Shown piece after piece: positions 20,458 to 49,323 of a stretch of DNA of 64,000 nucleotides. Within the stretch, counting starts at the first letter, position 1; the number at the start of each line of letters is the position of its first letter. This DNA comes from an uncultured bacterium. Lineage in GTDB: Bacteria > Patescibacteriota > Minisyncoccia > UBA6257 > 2-01-FULL-56-20. Position numbers and translations under genes: made by a program. The stretch lies in contig CAWJQC010000006.1 of the NCBI GenBank assembly GCA_963844965.1, positions 58,014 to 122,013 of the forward strand, written 5' to 3'. The notes beneath the pieces were generated by a model. The model was not told where the DNA came from and did not search any database. It saw nothing but the letters and a program-made list of their open reading frames with translations.

Positions 20458-20771
20458 GGGGATGATCGGCTTCGATAAGGATAAGTCCTGAACTGGCAAG
20501 CCAAGAGCTAACTTGTAAATCTGGCAAAAAATCAATAACTGCCAACTCAAAAGTTGCAGCTCCAGCATTCGCTTACGCGTAACGTTGGACATCGGCTGAT
20601 CCGGGCTTCTTGGGTTAATACCGGTGTTATATAAGGAAGCTCGTTCCGAGTTGACGATTCTACGCTCGGCACTAAACACAGAATCATTTCTGTCTAGTTT
20701 AACTGGACTACGCTTGTAGAAGGTTTAAGCGATTTTATCCTTACACGGCGGTTCAATTCCGCCCATCTCCA
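20458..20771 (+). ncRNA. ssrA: tmRNA (SsrA); predicted tag ANSKVAAPAFAYA
   Basis: 5' GGGGATGATCGGCTTCGATAAGG resembles the tmRNA 5' consensus. An internal tag ORF ..GCC AAC TCA AAA GTT GCA GCT CCA GCA TTC GCT TAC GCG TAA is present. The 3' T-arm GGCGG-TTCAATT-CCGCC plus acceptor CATCTCC-A pairs with the 5' GGGGATG. Confidence 0.8.
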
Positions 20772-20948
20772 CTAAAACAAAAATACTCGCTCCTTGTGAG
20801 CGGGTGTTTTTGTTTCTTGTAAAATGGTCTGGCGGAATTGAACGAGGGGTGGGCCGGAGGGGAAACTCGGTGTCCCCTCCGTGTAGGAAATTACTCAAAA
20901 CCGAGGGTTGTGAGAGAGCGAGTTGCTGTATAGCGACTCGCGACGTGA

Positions 20949-22516: not shown

Positions 22517-24028
22517 ATGAAAGCAATAATCTTATCTCGCGTATCAACGAAAGAGCAGGCCGATGAGGGGCAATCCATACCAGCGCAAACGGGACGGCTC
22601 ACTGAATACGTTAATAAAAAACAACTTGATCATTGGAAGGTTTTTGAGATCGCCGAAAGTTCTACGCACGATACAAGGAAAAAGTTTGATAAGGTTTTGG
22701 AGCTTATTAAGAAATCGCACGAGCCGCTTGCGCTTGTGGTTGAAACCGTTGACCGGCTGCAGCGGAGCTTTAAGGAAAGCGTTATTTTGGACGATCTGCG
22801 CAAAGAAGGCAAAGTTGAAATCCACTTTGTCCGCGAGGGCTTGATATTAACGAAGGATTCGAACAGCGCCCAGCTTTTACAATGGGATATGGGCGTGATG
22901 TTTGCCCGCAGCTACGTTTTGCAATTAAGCGATAACGTGAAGCGCAGCAATGAGCAGAAACTGAAGAACGGCGAATGGATAAGCAAAGCGCCGATAGGTT
23001 ATCGAAATATCAGGGATGAAAACGACAAGCCGGATATAGAAGTTGACCCCGAAGCATCGCCTTTTATCGTCAAGGTTTTCGAGCGCTACGCCACTGGCAA
23101 TTACTCGATGATTACGTTGGCCAAACAGATGCGCGAAGAAGGTTTTACCGGAAAACAACACGGCAATCCGATCACCGTTAGCCAGATAGAGCGCATACTT
23201 AAAAATTCTTTTTACTACGGCGTTATGGAGGTTCACGGCAAACAATATCAGCACCGCTACCCACCGCTTATCTCAATGCACCTGTTTTTGAAATGCCGCA
23301 AGGTTATAGAAAGTTGGAATAAAAAACCGTTTCAACACGCCGCGAGGCCATTTATCTTTCGAGGTATCCTATCGTGTGCAACCTGCGGTTGCGCCATTAC
23401 CGCAGAAATGGCAAAGGGCAAGTATATTTATTATCATTGCACGAATTTCAGGGGTATATGCGAGAAGGTATACGTGCCCGAAAAAGACCTTTTAAAGCCC
23501 ATAAAACGCTATCTGCGCAAGTTTGTGCTGCCGCAGGAAGGAATTGACTACGTTGTCGGTAAACTACGCACAACGACAGAAATCGAGCAGGAATACCACA
23601 ATCAGGCGATGGCTACCCTAAAAGCCGAATATGACCGCTACGAGGCCAGAATCAGCAAAATGACCGATGACAAATACGACGGCAGTATTACGCCCGAAAT
23701 CTACGACAAAAAATTGAAAGAGTATAAGGCAAAGCAGGCCGACTTATTGAATCAGATGCAGGATCACAGCAAAGCCGACGAGCAGCATCACCTTACGGCT
23801 ACGAAATTACTTGATGTTTGCAAACGCGCCGATTCAATCTTCGAAAGTTCTGAACCGGCTGAAAAACGGCAATTTTTGAATTTCGTATTTCAGAACTCGA
23901 CGCTAAACCGAAATAAGCCAATGTTTATGCTGAAACCCGTGTTTGCGGGCATAGTAAAAGCGCACGAAACTCATAAATGGGGTGCCTATCGGGATTCGAA
24001 CCCGAGCCGAGAGTGCCACAGACTCTAG
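22517..24028 (+). CDS. Large serine recombinase (resolvase N-terminus, recombinase domain and zinc ribbon)
   Basis: MKAIILSRVSTKEQADEGQSIPAQ (catalytic Ser region) ... CATCGCAI...YYHC zinc ribbon. The last ~17 codons overlap the tRNA-His gene on the opposite strand. Confidence 0.85.
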   Translation: MKAIILSRVSTKEQADEGQSIPAQTGRLTEYVNKKQLDHWKVFEIAESSTHDTRKKFDKVLELIKKSHEPLALVVETVDRLQRSFKESVILDDLRKEGKVEIHFVREGLILTKDSNSAQLLQWDMGVMFARSYVLQLSDNVKRSNEQKLKNGEWISKAPIGYRNIRDENDKPDIEVDPEASPFIVKVFERYATGNYSMITLAKQMREEGFTGKQHGNPITVSQIERILKNSFYYGVMEVHGKQYQHRYPPLISMHLFLKCRKVIESWNKKPFQHAARPFIFRGILSCATCGCAITAEMAKGKYIYYHCTNFRGICEKVYVPEKDLLKPIKRYLRKFVLPQEGIDYVVGKLRTTTEIEQEYHNQAMATLKAEYDRYEARISKMTDDKYDGSITPEIYDKKLKEYKAKQADLLNQMQDHSKADEQHHLTATKLLDVCKRADSIFESSEPAEKRQFLNFVFQNSTLNRNKPMFMLKPVFAGIVKAHETHKWGAYRDSNPSRECHRL

Positions 24029-24052
24029 TGCTGCCGTTACACCATAGGCACC
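23978..24052 (-). tRNA. tRNA-His (anticodon GUG) with G-1, C73 and encoded CCA
   Basis: Reverse complement: G(-1)-GTGCCTA-TG-GTGT-AACGGCA-GCAC-T-AGAGT-CTGTGGC-ACTCT-CGGC-TCGGG-TTCGAAT-CCCGA-TAGGCAC-C-CCA. Confidence 0.8.
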
Positions 24053-41613: not shown

Positions 41614-42018
41614 CTAGATATTTTCGTAATATCTAATTTCTTTGTCCATCGTAATGGGATTTTTAAGAGTTATTGCCAAGAGATCAATGCGCCAGCCTTT
41701 GCGGTCCTCTATCAAATCCACGTGTTTGCCGGCAAATGCTTCGCAGGCCCGCCGCAGTTTCTTGAGCTTTGCCGCGGTCATATTGTCCTCGGGCGCCAAT
41801 CTGTCCCCCGGGCCGCCGGGATCGCCAAACGTCTTCACTTCAACAAAAACAAGTGTCCTGTCCTTCGCGCGGCAGATAATATCTATCTCATCCCATTTTT
41901 CCTTGTAGTTGCGCTTCAAAATCTTATATCCCTTGTCAACAAGATATTCACAGGCCAAATCTTCGCCGATTTTGCCGATGGTTAAATTTTTTGGCTTAGA
42001 TGTTCCACCGCTAAACAT
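41614..42018 (-). CDS. yraN: YraN-family (UPF0102) endonuclease-like protein
   Basis: LTIGKIGEDLACEYLVDKGYKILKRNY...IDIICRAKDRTLVFVEVKTF. The start is set at the second Met (MFSGG..). Confidence 0.65.
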   Translation of the reverse strand: MFSGGTSKPKNLTIGKIGEDLACEYLVDKGYKILKRNYKEKWDEIDIICRAKDRTLVFVEVKTFGDPGGPGDRLAPEDNMTAAKLKKLRRACEAFAGKHVDLIEDRKGWRIDLLAITLKNPITMDKEIRYYENI

Positions 42019-42065
42019 TTTTGTTATAATATTAGTGTAAATCAGCAAACATCGCAATCCGCCAA

Positions 42066-42512
42066 ATGATAAGCCAACGGGGGACAAAAACAAAACTGTC
42101 GTATGAGTATATAAGGGGCCTAACCGAAGGAGAGGGAACTTTTACTTTTTGCAATTCTGGCCACAGAAAGATACCGGCTTTTACTATCAAAATGCATGTT
42201 AGAGACAAAAAATTGTTGGAAGCCGTCAGGGATGTTCTTGGCTTGAAAAATAAGGTATACCAATATCATTATCCAGGAAATGATGGTTCGGCGAGGGGTC
42301 CGCAAGCGATGCTTATTGTCCGCGAAATAGGGAATCTTAAGGATGTAATAATACCCCTGTTTGCCAAAAAACTTGCCGGCAACAAGGGTAAACAATTTGA
42401 CGCTTGGATTGAAAAGATATGGGAAGACCCGGACGTGCCACGGGCTTATAAGCTAATCTATAAAATCTATAAATCCGGGTTTTATGATAGAAATCCGAAA
42501 TTTATTTCTTAG
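42066..42512 (+). CDS. Free-standing LAGLIDADG-family homing endonuclease
   Basis: LSYEYIRGLTEGEGTFTF (single LAGLIDADG-type motif), KLLEAVRDVLGLKNKVYQY, AMLIVREIGNLKDVIIPLF. Confidence 0.65.
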   Translation: MISQRGTKTKLSYEYIRGLTEGEGTFTFCNSGHRKIPAFTIKMHVRDKKLLEAVRDVLGLKNKVYQYHYPGNDGSARGPQAMLIVREIGNLKDVIIPLFAKKLAGNKGKQFDAWIEKIWEDPDVPRAYKLIYKIYKSGFYDRNPKFIS

Positions 42513-42778
42513 GAGAGGAGAATGGATGTTTGCTGAATTACAATTGTTTCGCGATTTACAAAATTTTTATAGGAATCTATATTTTTCAACGTTTCCAGGT
42601 AAGCTTGAAAAATAAGCATTGGGCGATAAACAAACAAAAATGTTTGTCAAAAATCGTGGCGAGGCTTATTTTATGGGCTTTATCGGTTTTGCCGCATTAC
42701 TTTGCCGTATTTTTGCCGTAATTTATTGCCGATGTGCCTCGCTTGACTTCTTATGCCAGCTAATTATCCTTTAAAAAC

Positions 42779-43114
42779 ATGGACCAGCAAAAACTCAACG
42801 AATATAAAAAAGAGTTGGAAGCGACGCGCGCCGAACTGCTTGCGGAGCTAAAAAAGGATGAGAAGCCGGAGGATTTTGGCGGTGACGTTGACCATGGCGA
42901 AGAGGAAGAAAACGAGACAGAAAGCTTCAGCGAGCAAGTAGCGCTCGGACAATCACACAAAGAACAAATCAACGATATTGATATTGCTCTGAGCAAAATT
43001 GAGACCGGCAAATTCGGGATTTGCGAAAAATGTGGCCGTGAAATAGAAGAAAGAGTATTGCGCATCACGCCAGAATCGCGGCTCTGTAGGGCTTGCAAGA
43101 CAAACAAGAAGTAG
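42779..43114 (+). CDS. DksA/TraR-family C4 zinc-finger protein
   Basis: C-terminal CEKCGREIEERVLRITPESRLCRAC. Confidence 0.65.
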   Translation: MDQQKLNEYKKELEATRAELLAELKKDEKPEDFGGDVDHGEEEENETESFSEQVALGQSHKEQINDIDIALSKIETGKFGICEKCGREIEERVLRITPESRLCRACKTNKK

Positions 43115-44655: not shown

Positions 44656-44755
44656 CTAAACCAACGCGGTTGGCGGCACACTTCCTGGTTTAACCTTGTT
44701 TTATTTGATTTTTTCGCCTTTCTATAGTTATAAACAGTTAATCCACAACAAGGGC

Positions 44756-44783
44756 TTGACACCTGTCGTGCATATGCTAGAAT
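44756..44783 (+). promoter_or_regulatory. Strong sigma70-like promoter (TTGACA-N16-TAGAAT) at the head of the AT-rich island
   Basis: gggcTTGACAcctgtcgtgcatatgcTAGAATc. Confidence 0.45.
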
Positions 44784-44828
44784 CTAAGCAAATAGTCGAA
44801 ATGGGTGTAATAGCAAAATACTAATCAA

Positions 44829-45068
44829 ATGGTGGAAGAAATCAATAAAAACAAGGCGGAAACGCCGCGGGAAAGGTTCGTGAGGTTGGCCACCCAAAGG
44901 ACAAATGAGGTCCTGAAACGGCTGAGGGTCTTAGGCAATTGTTCAAATCGCAGTGCCTACGAGTATGAAGAAAAGGATGTGGAGAAAATATTTGGAGAAA
45001 TTGACAAGAAAGCAAAGGAGGTTAAATCGAAGTTCCAACAATCAAAACATAGGGAATTCAAATTATAG
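44829..45068 (+). CDS. Hypothetical small basic protein (first gene of the island operon)
   Basis: 79 aa; its stop lies 3 nt before the start of the next gene. Confidence 0.4.
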   Translation: MVEEINKNKAETPRERFVRLATQRTNEVLKRLRVLGNCSNRSAYEYEEKDVEKIFGEIDKKAKEVKSKFQQSKHREFKL

Positions 45069-45070
45069 AA

Positions 45071-46954
45071 ATGACGGAATTAATCCAACCTCAAAATCGC
45101 GAGAGGGATTTAAGGGCCGCACTAGATGGTTACCGCGCCCACGTCGAGCATGATGAATGGTTCACAGAAGCATTCCAGAAAGACGTCATTCAAAATAGTT
45201 GGGACGCTAGGGAGGATAAAAAACACGGCCACGGATGGAGCTGCTCAATCTTACTCAATTCAAAAATATTTAATGGCAAGAGGGGGATTGTCATCAGTGA
45301 TGCGGGCACGAAGGGACTGACGGGGAGAATACCGACATCGCAGAATAATTTACTTCAAATTTTGAAGGATGGGCAATTCTCAGATAGACTAGCGTTCTTT
45401 TTGAGTTCACAATGGAGCGAACACGAGGAGGGGGAGGGTGGCTCACGCGGGAGGGGAAAAATGTTGCTTCTGGCGGCTTCTGAAGATTGCGAATTTTATT
45501 TTGATTCTTTAAGATTTGATGACCATCGATGTATTTTTGGACGAGTATTTTTAGACGAAAACAAAGAAATAAAAATCAACTTTGAGGTTGGCGAAAGTGG
45601 CAAAAATGAATTGAAAAAAATTCTGCCATTTCAAAAGCCGCTCGCTCAACCGGGAACGAGAATATTTATCCCCAATCCCCGAGCCGATCTAGAAAAAGGG
45701 TTCAGAAAAAACGCGGTGGCTAAATACGTTATGAGAACGTGGTGGGAAATTTTAGAGAAATATAATGCACAAATAAGTATCGGGGTTGATGACGCCATAG
45801 AAAAAGTAAATCAATGCGAGTGGCTCCCTCCATCAAGAATTGTGGAAAAAGAAAATTTAAAGGAATATCCGCCTATTCCTATTCAAAATAATTTGAAAAT
45901 CAAAAGAATTACGCTTGGTTTTTTAAAAGGTAAAAATATCCCGGACAATTATAAAGGCATTCACCTCCAGCGAGCGGGAATGATTATTGAAAGCGTTAAG
46001 CTATATGACCTAGTTCAAGAAAACTGGAACGACAAAATATATGGCATAGTAGAATTCGAACCAGAACTTGAGGAAGAAATGAAAAATCACGAGGGGGTAG
46101 AGCATTATAATTTCTTTTGGACCCACAACCCTCCAAGGTTTGTAAGGCAGATTTTAAAACAAAAAGTGTTGGAGTTCGCTAGGGAACATCATTTATTAGA
46201 AGAGGGCGCAAAACAAGCCAAAGAAATAAAGGAGGCCGAGAATAATGCAGAAAAAATACTTAATAAACTAGCAAAACAATTAAATCTCAAAGGATTTTCG
46301 AGGAAACGAAAAACGCGAACCACAAAAAAGAGGGAAAAAAATGAGAAAATAAGACTTTCAATAAGAGATTTGGAAATCCCACAATCTGGTAGGTTTGAAT
46401 TCGGCGAGTCGTTGAAGGGCGCTTATGCTGTCCCAATTAGCGAGTACGAAAATCAACTCAAAACACGGATATCGGTATCGATTTACGAAAAAAATACCGG
46501 GAGAAATATCATAAATACTTCTGAAGAGAGACTAATTAGTGTATTCAACAACAACCAAGAAGGGGTGGGCTGGAAAACCGTTACAATTGACAAAGAAAAA
46601 TTTAACAGGGGAGCGTATGTTTTTAAAGCAAAAATGATATCGCTGGAAGAAACGAGTGTCGGGTCCACGGCCGTAGAGAAAGGGGAGGAGCTTTACCACC
46701 CTGTCAGTGGAATATTTTGGGTTGACCAAGATCCGGACGAGGAGGGATTCTTTGATGTACGACGGTCAGACAGGGACGAAAAAGAAAAATTCTTTTGGTG
46801 GAGAAATGAGGGATCTGACAAAGTAGATCACTATGTTTTCTACTGGAATGGCGAACACATGGTTTTCAAAGAAATCAGGAACGATAAAACGTCGCTAGAA
46901 TCTGCGCTAGTTCGATTTGGATCAGTTAGCAGCACTTTCCGTAGCTTTTTCTAA
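45071..46954 (+). CDS. GHKL-type (HATPase_c-like) ATPase N-terminal domain fused to a large uncharacterised C-terminal region
   Basis: Bergerat-fold N box FQKDVIQNSWDARED (compare ELIxNSxDA of MutL/HSP90/MORC) and G1 box VISDAGTKGLTG. The remaining ~450 aa have no recognisable motif. Confidence 0.5.
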   Translation: MTELIQPQNRERDLRAALDGYRAHVEHDEWFTEAFQKDVIQNSWDAREDKKHGHGWSCSILLNSKIFNGKRGIVISDAGTKGLTGRIPTSQNNLLQILKDGQFSDRLAFFLSSQWSEHEEGEGGSRGRGKMLLLAASEDCEFYFDSLRFDDHRCIFGRVFLDENKEIKINFEVGESGKNELKKILPFQKPLAQPGTRIFIPNPRADLEKGFRKNAVAKYVMRTWWEILEKYNAQISIGVDDAIEKVNQCEWLPPSRIVEKENLKEYPPIPIQNNLKIKRITLGFLKGKNIPDNYKGIHLQRAGMIIESVKLYDLVQENWNDKIYGIVEFEPELEEEMKNHEGVEHYNFFWTHNPPRFVRQILKQKVLEFAREHHLLEEGAKQAKEIKEAENNAEKILNKLAKQLNLKGFSRKRKTRTTKKREKNEKIRLSIRDLEIPQSGRFEFGESLKGAYAVPISEYENQLKTRISVSIYEKNTGRNIINTSEERLISVFNNNQEGVGWKTVTIDKEKFNRGAYVFKAKMISLEETSVGSTAVEKGEELYHPVSGIFWVDQDPDEEGFFDVRRSDRDEKEKFFWWRNEGSDKVDHYVFYWNGEHMVFKEIRNDKTSLESALVRFGSVSSTFRSFF

Positions 46955-47050
46955 AGCTAAACAAAACAAAAAGGCTTTTGAAAAAATATTCAAATCGGAC
47001 GAACTACGGCTACAAGATTCTGATGATATTTTAAAGGTCATCGTGGGAAG

Positions 47051-47728
47051 ATGGGGACTATTTATGGCGTCGAAATAGGTATGATGGCGATACTTTTACG
47101 AAAAGATAACGAAAAAATTTATTTTTCAGATAAGGGGCCGGTAACTGAGGAGAAAAAAACGAAAGCCGACACTCTGGATGGAGAATTGAATAGTGGGATA
47201 CAACGATTGTTAAAACTTTTTTTAAAAATGCATCTCATCACAAAGAATGGGAGGAAAAAAGACGCACTCAGGGTTTGGTATGGTTTTGGTAAGTTTCTAT
47301 TAGATTTAGCTAATAAGTATAAAATAATCGGCAGCGGCGACGAAATATATTTCTGGCAGGCAATCTACGATCATCTGCCAAAAGAATTTCAGAAGAATCC
47401 TCCACCAAAAAGATTTCGACAACTATCTAAAAATCAATATAGAAAAGCGGCTATTATGGCTCAATATCCGTGGGATACCATCAAGAAAGTAGGAAGGTGG
47501 GCGGTTTGGAACGACATTCTAGATAATCCCAAAATCCTTAATGACAAACGGATTCTTGATTGGATTGTCCGAAAAGTTATCAAAAACCCCCTCCCTCATA
47601 AAGAGATAAGAAAATTTTTATATGCCGTGAGTACGCGTCTTCGTAAAATCGATACTAGCGTTTTAAGTCTTGAGGAGTTGAAACAAAAACTAGATACAGT
47701 GACATTAACCCCTATTTTAAATTCATAA
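47051..47728 (+). CDS. Hypothetical protein
   Basis: 225 aa, Lys-rich, no recognisable motif. Confidence 0.35.
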   Translation: MGTIYGVEIGMMAILLRKDNEKIYFSDKGPVTEEKKTKADTLDGELNSGIQRLLKLFLKMHLITKNGRKKDALRVWYGFGKFLLDLANKYKIIGSGDEIYFWQAIYDHLPKEFQKNPPPKRFRQLSKNQYRKAAIMAQYPWDTIKKVGRWAVWNDILDNPKILNDKRILDWIVRKVIKNPLPHKEIRKFLYAVSTRLRKIDTSVLSLEELKQKLDTVTLTPILNS

Positions 47729-47737
47729 GCCCGCGTA

Positions 47738-47777
47738 GAATTGAGGACATAATATCCTGAAATTAACGGCTCCGGCG
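47738..47777 (+). repeat. 40-bp direct repeat, copy 1
   Basis: gaattgaggacataatatcctgaaattaacggctccggcg; copy 2 at 49221..49260 differs at 2 positions. Confidence 0.6.
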
Positions 47778-47854
47778 GGTGGAGGCCCTGCCTGCCGGTA
47801 GGCAGGGCTAAACCACACCACTAATTCAGTAACACCCCTTCAGTAACGCCCTGC

Positions 47855-48928
47855 TTATTCGAAGAGAGTAGGATTATTGCGCGGGTCATGGCCCTCAACT
47901 CTGTCTATCATGAATCTTACCGCATCGTTCATGCTAACCGCCTGTAATTTTATTCCCGGGTGTTTCTCGTGAAAGACCCTGAAAATCTCATCGGCAAATG
48001 CCTGACCGATCATCGGAACTTTATCAAAATCAAAAATGATTGACTTGAACTTTTCCAAATTTGTGAGCACCCTTCTTGCTTGGGAACGAGAAACATGGAC
48101 TCCGCTCATGGTGTAGAGTTTCACTTTTATCTCGGTTTTGTCAAAACCATAATCCCCGTCTTTGGTGATATCGGTGTATCTTTTAAAAATGTCATTAAGG
48201 TGCCTATCGGAATCTGTATTGATCTCGAAAGAAACGGATGTCCCGCGTTTGCTTTTTTTACTGCGCGAAACAAATATGTCGCCGATACGATTATTTACAA
48301 CCATCTGGATTCCGAAACTGTCTAAAATGAAAATGTCGGCGGTTTTTGAGGTAAAGAATATGCCCTCACCAGAATGAGCTTTTGGCTGGGTGGTTGTCTT
48401 GCCCTTTAGCAATTCTTGGATGGCCTCCAATTCAGATTTTAATCCTCGCTTTCGCATCACGTTTCGGAATACCCCGATACCAGCATCAATAACCCGAAAC
48501 AGCAACCGCCTGTCTGCGATTTCAACCAGAACTTGTATGTTCTTTGACTCTGAATGTTCTATGGCGTTATTGAGCATTTCTGAGAACGCGTAAGTAAAGA
48601 TACTCCTTATGTTCTCGTGGAGTTTAAGAATCACAGGCAGTCTCTCTTCTATTTCATCTAAAACCCGATGTTCTTCCAGATTTACGTTCTTAAGAGATTT
48701 TTGTATTCTTGTCGGCAATAAATCCAGATGCTCTGTCACATATTGAGGAGAAACGTAAAATGCGCTTCTGGTTGAACCTATTTTCATTAGCTTCCTCGCG
48801 GTAATCAGATTGTTAATCAAAATCTTTGCGTATTGTCTGGAAACCCCAAGAAGCGACACTACGTCCCGTGTCTTAATCTGCTTCTTTATTTCTAAAAGAG
48901 AAAGAATTTTTTGTTCTTGATTGGTCAT
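47855..48928 (-). CDS. wHTH plus anti-sigma-kinase-like GHKL ATPase (RsbW/SpoIIAB-type) plus uncharacterised C-terminal domain
   Basis: N-terminal DVVSLLGVSRQYAKILINNL (HTH); FSEMLNNAIEHSESKNIQVLVEIADRRLLFRVIDAGIGV (N box and G1 box). Confidence 0.5.
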   Translation of the reverse strand: MTNQEQKILSLLEIKKQIKTRDVVSLLGVSRQYAKILINNLITARKLMKIGSTRSAFYVSPQYVTEHLDLLPTRIQKSLKNVNLEEHRVLDEIEERLPVILKLHENIRSIFTYAFSEMLNNAIEHSESKNIQVLVEIADRRLLFRVIDAGIGVFRNVMRKRGLKSELEAIQELLKGKTTTQPKAHSGEGIFFTSKTADIFILDSFGIQMVVNNRIGDIFVSRSKKSKRGTSVSFEINTDSDRHLNDIFKRYTDITKDGDYGFDKTEIKVKLYTMSGVHVSRSQARRVLTNLEKFKSIIFDFDKVPMIGQAFADEIFRVFHEKHPGIKLQAVSMNDAVRFMIDRVEGHDPRNNPTLFE

Positions 48929-49220
48929 GGTTCGGTTAGCTATAAGTTAATTGTAAACCAAATTAAATTCAATTGTCAACTAATTGTAAACTAATGGTTT
49001 TTACCCCAACAAAACCGCCCGAATTGCTGAGATTGCGTCACTGAAAGCTCGGGCAACCGCTGCAAACATTCTTCTGGTTCTGGTTCGACTACGCTCACCA
49101 TCTCGAGCGAAGTCGAGGGACAATAATGCCTGCCTGCCGTGCCTTCGGCAGGTGAACCGGCAGACAGGTCCGCTCATTTCCACCTATATCGGTTTTACTA
49201 TCTTAAACTCCAGCTTGGTT

Positions 49221-49260
49221 GAATTGAGGACATAATATCCCGAAATTACCGGCTCCGGCG
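49221..49260 (+). repeat. 40-bp direct repeat, copy 2
   Basis: gaattgaggacataatatcccgaaattaccggctccggcg. The AT-rich composition ends here. Confidence 0.6.
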
Positions 49261-49323
49261 CTAGGGGGACGATAACCTGGCCGAAATAAAAAGGCCGCGC
49301 GGCGAACCACGCGGCGAGAATCT

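Follow-up and report, generated by a model that had tools for sequence, protein, structure and literature searches.

A mobile three-gene cassette around a MORC-like GHKL-S5 ATPase, a candidate restriction-like defence module, in an AT-rich island of an uncultured Patescibacteriota bacterium

Prokaryotic MORC-type ATPases were proposed in 2008 as ancestors of the eukaryotic MORC/SMCHD1 silencers and as components of restriction systems (PMC2292703). A GHKL ATPase with a clamp-like middle domain also occurs in an anti-phage context in the GHKL-Shedu protein VcSduA, fused to a DUF4263 PD-(D/E)xK nuclease (PMC12137116). In regulation, CapK, with the order helix-turn-helix (HTH)-STAS-GHKL, and CapS, a separate repressor made up of STAS and winged HTH (wHTH) domains, control adjacent immune operons (PMC13373217). 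These systems are compared here with an AT-rich island of four genes, A to D, in an uncultured bacterium of the Patescibacteriota (assembly GCA_963844965.1). The window, the whole stretch of DNA analysed, comprises 64,000 nucleotides (nt) of contig CAWJQC010000006.1 (positions 58,014 to 122,013); all coordinates are window positions unless a locus is named. A sequence-only reading had described the island as a single defence-like module with two GHKL ATPases. The analysis resolved it into two units, a cassette A-B-C and a separate gene D.

With moderate confidence, A-B-C is read as an ATP-gated GHKL+S5 DNA-clamp system of the paraMORC type, acting as a restriction-like or anti-mobile-element defence module. 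B would be a dimerising, ATP-gated clamp handling DNA. DNA binding and either target discrimination or the effector step would come from the basic linker, Ig-like domains and helical tail of B and from its small, obligate basic partners A and C. A Dcm-type C5 methyltransferase, present with or without Vsr in a large minority of the genomes, would mark self DNA. The reading draws on operon conservation, the fold and motifs of B, the patchy phyletic spread, the differing flanks and the methyltransferase, Vsr and recombinase neighbours. The cassette forms the tightly packed plus-strand operon described earlier, with D as the convergent gene, and consists of the following features:

44756..44783, plus strand: promoter-like site TTGACA-N16-TAGAAT, 11/12 match, -10 extended by TG, gene A 45 nt downstream
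44829..45068, plus strand: gene A, a 79-amino-acid (aa) basic protein with an isoelectric point (pI) of 9.6, directly upstream of B, no known family
45071..47077, plus strand: gene B, GHKL + S5 transducer ATPase of the MORC/SMCHD1 class, 668 aa as uninterrupted open reading frame (ORF); as read 45071..46954, 627 aa
46925..46925, plus strand: extra G (TCA-G-TTA), a +1 frameshift in B 45 codons ahead of its natural stop
47084..47728, plus strand: gene C, a 214-aa basic, Trp-rich protein, pI 9.95, directly downstream of B

The ORFs were found at the coordinates first given, and the near-consensus promoter and the small basic protein at the head of the operon were recovered as first described. The 627-aa frame of B had correct coordinates and is shortened by the extra G. 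Deletion of the G at 46925 restored an ORF of 668 aa, of which the last 50 aa match a 668-aa homolog (P0001) at 43/50 identity. The conserved tail continues in the +2 frame, and homologs are 660-680 aa long. The extra G is either a recent lesion or an assembly error. For C, a start at 47051 and 225 aa had been assumed; the alignment places the likeliest start at 47084 (MAILL...).

B is a member of the GHKL (Bergerat-fold) ATPase superfamily. Both the N box (VIQNSWDA) and the G1 box (SDAGTKG), from which the sequence-only reading had recognised it, are located in invariant columns of the 49-member family alignment. Motif I, the N box, reads QKD38-x-I-Q-N42-S-W-D45-A and is invariant in the 49 sequences. 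It conforms to ExxxNxxD with the Mg-binding Asn, in a variant with Asp38 instead of Glu at the general-base position and Gln41 at position N-1. Motifs II to IV are invariant or nearly so: D77xG79T80xG82 (DxGxG), G124xR126G127R128G129K130 (the glycine-rich lid) and G195T196R197 (GT). The Bergerat fold is present in three dimensions, and the GHKL domain is followed by an S5-fold transducer domain, as defined for the MORC family sensu Iyer et al. 2008. The remaining 450 or so residues, previously left without assignment, resolve into the S5 transducer and further domains: GHKL and S5 occupy aa 1-350, a coiled coil 355-403, a basic disordered linker about 405-425, an Ig-like beta region (beta-sandwich) 427-592 and a helical tail 597-667. 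Under the two-acid model of GHKL ATPases (PMC13614785), B would keep one proton acceptor, like the Hsp90 branch, and the motif suggests a slow, switch-like ATPase.

The family most similar in design is paraMORC (PMC2292703). Shared features are an N-terminal GHKL domain with four ATP-binding motifs followed by an S5 transducer, a sporadic, laterally mobile occurrence in bacteria and archaea, and neighbourhoods with cytosine methylases and Vsr. As in paraMORC2, the C-terminal end of the S5 domain carries a conserved ExxxH motif (E341-G-P-E344-H345; E341 conserved in at least 90%, H345 invariant). Unlike paraMORC, the cassette has no conserved SFII helicase or RE-fold nuclease, its partners A and C are without known relatives, and B carries the coiled coil, basic linker, Ig-like beta region and helical tail. 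The MORC-specific S5 motif GhXhhpXXRhl (PMC2292703) is not reproduced: the B consensus KGIAIQRxGMxIE has its arginine at the sixth instead of the ninth position after the glycine. paraMORC2 was reported mainly in cyanobacteria and Gram-positives (PMC2292703), whereas B occurs mostly in Patescibacteria. B matched no Pfam or NCBIfam model of paraMORC2, and the likeness rests on the published description. The MORC-type Pfam model HATPase_c_3 matched only 2 of the 49 family members, at E=0.06. The comparison also took in the ATPase modules of eukaryotic MORC2, MORC3 and SMCHD1. B is only 10-18% identical to them, has Asp for Glu at the general-base position, lacks CW, chromo-like, SMC-hinge and other chromatin-reader domains, and is encoded in a prokaryotic operon.

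The best Foldseek matches of B were Hsp90, GRP94 and TRAP1 (E~6e-12), covering the N-terminal and middle domains. At Gln41, beside the N-box Asn, B also has no second acidic residue, a loss shared with the Hsp90 branch. B could therefore be taken for a housekeeping paralog of the Hsp90/HtpG chaperones in a core region that merely happens to be of low GC content. This is scarcely credible: rarity, mobility and operon structure effectively refute it. Unlike these chaperones, B lacks the C-terminal dimerisation domain, and Pfam HSP90 matched none of the 49 family members.

Neither A nor C has known relatives. The conserved core of A is ERFxRLAxxRTNxVLxxLRVLGNxSNxxxYxY. Modelling of C drew on the matches of the representative search and yielded a confident model with an N-terminal beta-hairpin and a helical body, an orphan fold without PDB relative. 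Searches of A, B and C, as single sequences and as family profiles, against Pfam, NCBIfam, PADLOC, PHROGs and PDB sequences gave nothing significant. No paper describing the trio was found, in agreement with the earlier statement that no described system matches. On these grounds the trio is classed as a paraMORC-type restriction-modification (R-M) or defence module whose partners are novel and in which neither a nuclease nor a helicase is recognisable.

A-B-C is rare, laterally mobile chromosomal cargo, as seen from its wide host range, its unshared flanks and its absence from viral, phage and plasmid collections. About 70 homologs of B at cluster level were present among 5.8 billion proteins, none of them annotated and none with Pfam domains; C had 128 representatives among 1.84 billion proteins. 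The loci examined (L numbers) were 9 from metagenomes and 21 from genomes, about 24 of them non-redundant, with A and C placed by hidden Markov models. Almost wherever the contig permits, B has A as its immediate upstream neighbour and C as its immediate downstream neighbour, and stop and start codons often overlap. The exceptions are archaeal loci, which lack A. In one such locus of archaeal type, beside Mre11/Rad50/NurA/HerA, an unrelated 319-aa protein fills the slot directly upstream of B (L009, 7035-7994) and may be a functional replacement of A in archaea. The hosts are mostly Patescibacteria of several classes and include Aminicenantes, Verrucomicrobiia, Ignavibacteria, Chloroflexia, Erysipelotrichaceae, a cultured Paraliobacillus and Bathyarchaeota. 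The flanking genes differ at every locus. The window shares no flanking gene with any other locus, including the one with 76% identical B (L001), and an empty site was sought without success. The cassette was absent from IMG/VR viral contigs, INPHARED phages and PLSDB plasmids. Around the window copy, no tRNA gene was found within 10 kb in the search for tRNA- or att-type boundaries, and no strong repeat flanks A-B-C; the sole strong repeat brackets D instead.

A census of 150 ORFs within about 4 kb of the non-redundant trios was led by C-5 cytosine methyltransferases (8), resolvases or serine recombinases (7) and Vsr (4). All-vs-all sequence clustering of the neighbours revealed no recurrent partner beyond these three. 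By phmmer mapping, 9 of the roughly 24 loci have a methyltransferase beside the trio, in three cases (L007, L018, L025) in the same operon. In L007 it precedes the trio by 15 nt on the same strand, in L018 and L025 it overlaps the stop of C, and in L027 it follows 26 nt downstream. The most informative locus is on an Aminicenantes chromosome (OY969696.1; L025, 7712-16427). A-B-C, a C5 methyltransferase, a canonical MORC-type GHKL protein (HATPase_c_3), an HhH-GPD glycosylase and a UvrD-like helicase are arranged there co-directionally, which places two different GHKL+S5-type ATPases in one R-M-like operon and adds to the likeness with paraMORC. Profile alignment (hhalign) of B with this canonical protein gave a probability of 9%. 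Upstream of the array, a 1,259-aa Ser/Thr kinase-STAND-TPR protein is encoded. Other neighbours are an AlwI-like restriction endonuclease, which together with a resolvase adjoins the trio of Paraliobacillus quinghaiensis YIM-C158 (L033), Shedu, a neighbour of the trio in L007/L008 and located downstream in L007, and AbiEii near the trio in L002-4. DUF5681 proteins also occur near the trio.

The presence of Vsr allows another interpretation, in which very-short-patch repair by Dcm/Vsr has A-B-C as a MutL-like accessory that genome-reduced hosts receive in trans. B would then stimulate Vsr at the T:G mismatches that arise from deamination of 5-methylcytosine. Vsr was detected in only 4 of the roughly 24 loci, and 15 are without any methyltransferase. 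The patchy, mobile, low-GC distribution is unlike that of a repair function, for which A and C are not required. A repair role is distinctly unlikely.

Serine recombinases, large or small, lie within 0.2-6 kb of the trio in 7 non-redundant loci. The cassette might accordingly serve its own mobile element, by DNA compaction, partition, recombination directionality or addiction in islands mobilised by serine recombinases. The nearby DUF5681 proteins, flanks that change every time, the lack of a recognisable effector nuclease and the basic, DNA-binder-like character of A, C and the linker of B agree with such a service. Most loci are without a recombinase within 6 kb, including the window, with its nearest one about 21 kb away. 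The absence from viral, phage and plasmid collections and the operonic fusion with C5 methyltransferases, typical of restriction-like systems, also speak against it. Service to a mobile element is rather unlikely.

Several observations weigh against a defence module. Co-location with recombinases in islands fits non-defence functions of mobile elements equally well. The R-M link is facultative, since no methyltransferase occurs within about 6 kb in 15 of the roughly 24 loci, the window among them, and the methyltransferase of L033 is already paired with its own AlwI-like restriction endonuclease. At E<=1, none of A, B and C had a match in PADLOC-DB v2.0.0. The three proteins show no recognisable nuclease, helicase or other effector domain, and the residues conserved in A and C give no impression of a catalytic site. 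ATP turnover of B may be slow because of the Asp at the general-base position and the Gln at N-1. The literature searched contained no experimentally characterised member of the bacterial MORC-type ATPases. The window copy itself may be inactive, being without a methyltransferase and frameshifted in B 45 codons before the end.

No endonuclease domain was detected for A, C or the C-terminal half of B in Pfam, PADLOC, NCBIfam, PHROG and PDB, and the 64-kb window has no C5 methyltransferase; two hallmarks of an R-M system are therefore not seen in this copy. A cryptic nuclease in A, C or the C-terminal half of B is possible. VcSduA (PMC12137116) is similar as a GHKL ATPase with a clamp-like middle domain in an anti-phage context and differs by its nuclease domain; B has neither such a domain nor a PADLOC match. 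Alternatively, A-B-C might be an immune or silencing system without nuclease, in which a MORC/SMCHD1-like clamp, loaded and directed by A and C, one of them with a new fold, topologically entraps or compacts invading or unmethylated DNA and does not cut it. This version is quite unlikely.

Decay of the cassette was seen at another locus. In a Bathyarchaeota metagenome-assembled genome (L034, 8022-10659), B is broken up into three ORFs and C is broken up into two, and the copy is accordingly regarded as decayed. Together with the frameshift in the window, this hints that copies of the cassette are often inactivated.

The island of the window is a composite of A-B-C and a separate gene D unit. 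Its low GC content relative to the flanks, noticed earlier by eye, was borne out by calculation. The lowest-GC stretch of the 64 kb extends over 44.7-49.0 kb; A-B-C has a GC content of 0.394 and D of 0.410, in comparison to a mean of 0.499 over the 64 kb (standard deviation 0.041, 1-kb windows). Seven of the eight 1-kb windows with GC below 0.43 fall in 45-49 kb, and GC at third codon positions is 0.61 in yifB but 0.34-0.45 in B, C and D. The island is composite because homologs of D occur without A-B-C, trio loci lack a D homolog, and a 43-nt repeat brackets D. The second unit comprises:

47735..47777, plus strand: copy 1 of a 43-nt direct repeat, with 93% identity to copy 2
47785..47808, no strand assigned: hairpin with a perfect, GC-rich stem, GCCCTGCCTGCC/GGTAGGCAGGGC, in the gap where genes C and D converge, z = -2.6
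47855..48928, minus strand: gene D, wHTH, GHKL kinase/ATPase (HATPase_c) and STAS-like DUF4325, independent of A-B-C
48950..48979, minus strand: promoter-like site TTGACA-N18-TACAAT, 11/12 match, upstream of D
48948-48961 and 48981-48994: two 14-nt direct repeats TAATTGTAAAC(C/T)AA, straddling the -35 and -10 of the D promoter-like site
49218..49260, plus strand: 43-nt direct repeat, copy 2, bracketing with copy 1 exactly D and its promoter

The 43-nt repeat has two copies in 64 kb against 0.01 expected by chance and suggests that D arrived, or was duplicated, as a separate unit of about 1.5 kb. The hairpin is a probable bidirectional terminator. The 14-nt repeats are a candidate operator for the wHTH domain of D, which probably autoregulates through these repeats at its own promoter.

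The wHTH and GHKL domains first assigned to D are confirmed, while the C-terminal domain, for which no family had been recognised, is the STAS-like DUF4325 (PF14213, residues 283-337, 54 bits versus a cut-off of 23, E=1.3e-14). D passes the model HATPase_c (27.2 bits, cut-off 26.4) and stays below HATPase_c_2 (25.5 versus 27.4). It does not belong to SpoIIAB/RsbW, with 13 bits against a cut-off of 135 for TIGR01925. PADLOC matches were marginal only (SoFic 0.004, DrmA 0.005), and the literature on DUF4325 yielded nothing relevant. More than 5,900 homologs were found, many of them about 60% identical across Paceibacterota and other Patescibacteria, annotated in the sources as DUF4325 (NCBI 'DUF4325 domain-containing protein') or 'anti-sigma regulatory factor'. 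Column identity averages 62% over 38 diverse members, in which the N-box and G1 residues are invariant. The best reading of D is an autonomous regulator that combines wHTH, kinase and STAS-like domains in one chain and belongs to a family very widespread in Patescibacteria.

Like CapK/CapS and SpoIIAB/SpoIIAA, D joins an HTH and a STAS-like domain to a SpoIIAB-like GHKL kinase domain whose N and G1 boxes are invariant. Unlike CapK/CapS, it is one chain with the order wHTH-GHKL-STAS-like, the comparison with CapK being by description. The canonical phospho-serine position of STAS is an invariant Gly-Gln in D (G308-Q309). The window neighbours of D that were scanned included no recognisable sigma or STAS gene; neither a sigma factor, an anti-anti-sigma factor nor a CapS gene lies beside D, and D is not upstream of an immune operon. 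By this comparison D appears analogous to CapK/CapS and not a member of that family. In another genome (L011, 3272-11101), a homolog of D (76% identical) is located downstream of an ECF sigma-70 gene and a DUF5667 protein, about 6 kb away and separated from them by four unknown genes. This neighbourhood may be relevant to an anti-sigma-like reading of D.

The domain types of D invite the idea of one four-gene module in which two GHKL ATPases cooperate and D is the sensor kinase or regulator. The genes are adjacent within one low-GC segment, and CapK/CapS, which controls adjacent immune operons (PMC13373217), has the same three domain types. Missing co-occurrence largely refutes the idea: none of the roughly 24 trio loci has a D homolog, and homologs at 76-87% identity sit in three other contexts, all without A-B-C. 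Also, D is convergent with the operon and not at its promoter, belongs to a huge, strongly conserved family, is bracketed by its own 43-nt repeats, and differs from CapK in domain order and in lacking a CapS-like partner. A four-gene module is highly improbable. In L003, a minus-strand gene of 362 aa that follows downstream of the trio was considered as a D homolog and proved unrelated. The earlier proposal of defence-like cargo thus holds for A-B-C as a mobile accessory cassette, with a defence role that remains at the strength given above, and does not extend to D.

Promoter-like sites across the region numbered 6, with 8.8 expected in shuffled sequence, so that only the placement of the sites is suggestive. 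A 22-nt inverted repeat of 86% complementarity (44694-44715 / 44835-44856) has arms that flank the promoter at 44756 together with the opening codons of gene A, and could be a regulatory element of the A-B-C operon. No known RNA families were found in the intergenic regions.

Further features of the window lie outside the island. A second low-GC patch (42001-43000, GC 0.40) holds a 148-aa ORF (42066-42512, plus strand; LTEGEGTFTF...), which by eye reads like a candidate LAGLIDADG homing endonuclease and overlaps the start of an opposite-strand YraN-like ORF. A 503-aa large serine recombinase (22517-24028, plus strand) matches recombinases beside other trios (phmmer E=3e-35). The 3' end of its ORF overlaps a tRNA-His gene (23978-24051, minus strand) in a 2-kb window of GC 0.45; it may represent another integrated element about 21 kb upstream of the island. 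A tRNA gene cluster (14.1-15.8 kb) and the tmRNA gene (20458-20772, tag ANSKVAAPAFAYA) are ordinary landmarks.

The window copy, without methyltransferase and frameshifted, is of limited value. The cassette itself can be tested, since it is present in the cultured Firmicute Paraliobacillus quinghaiensis and intact in close relatives of the window copy (P0001). Being compact, with only three genes, two partners of unknown fold and neither a helicase nor a recognisable nuclease, it could show what a GHKL+S5 clamp itself contributes to defence. There is a possible link to the origin of MORC/SMCHD1 silencing, although the general class was predicted long ago. If nuclease-free silencing were true, the cassette would be, in mechanism, a forerunner of epigenetic silencing by eukaryotic MORC/SMCHD1 that reads the cytosine-methylation status. 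For the Patescibacteria, whose immune repertoire is poorly known, A-B-C would add a candidate defence system.

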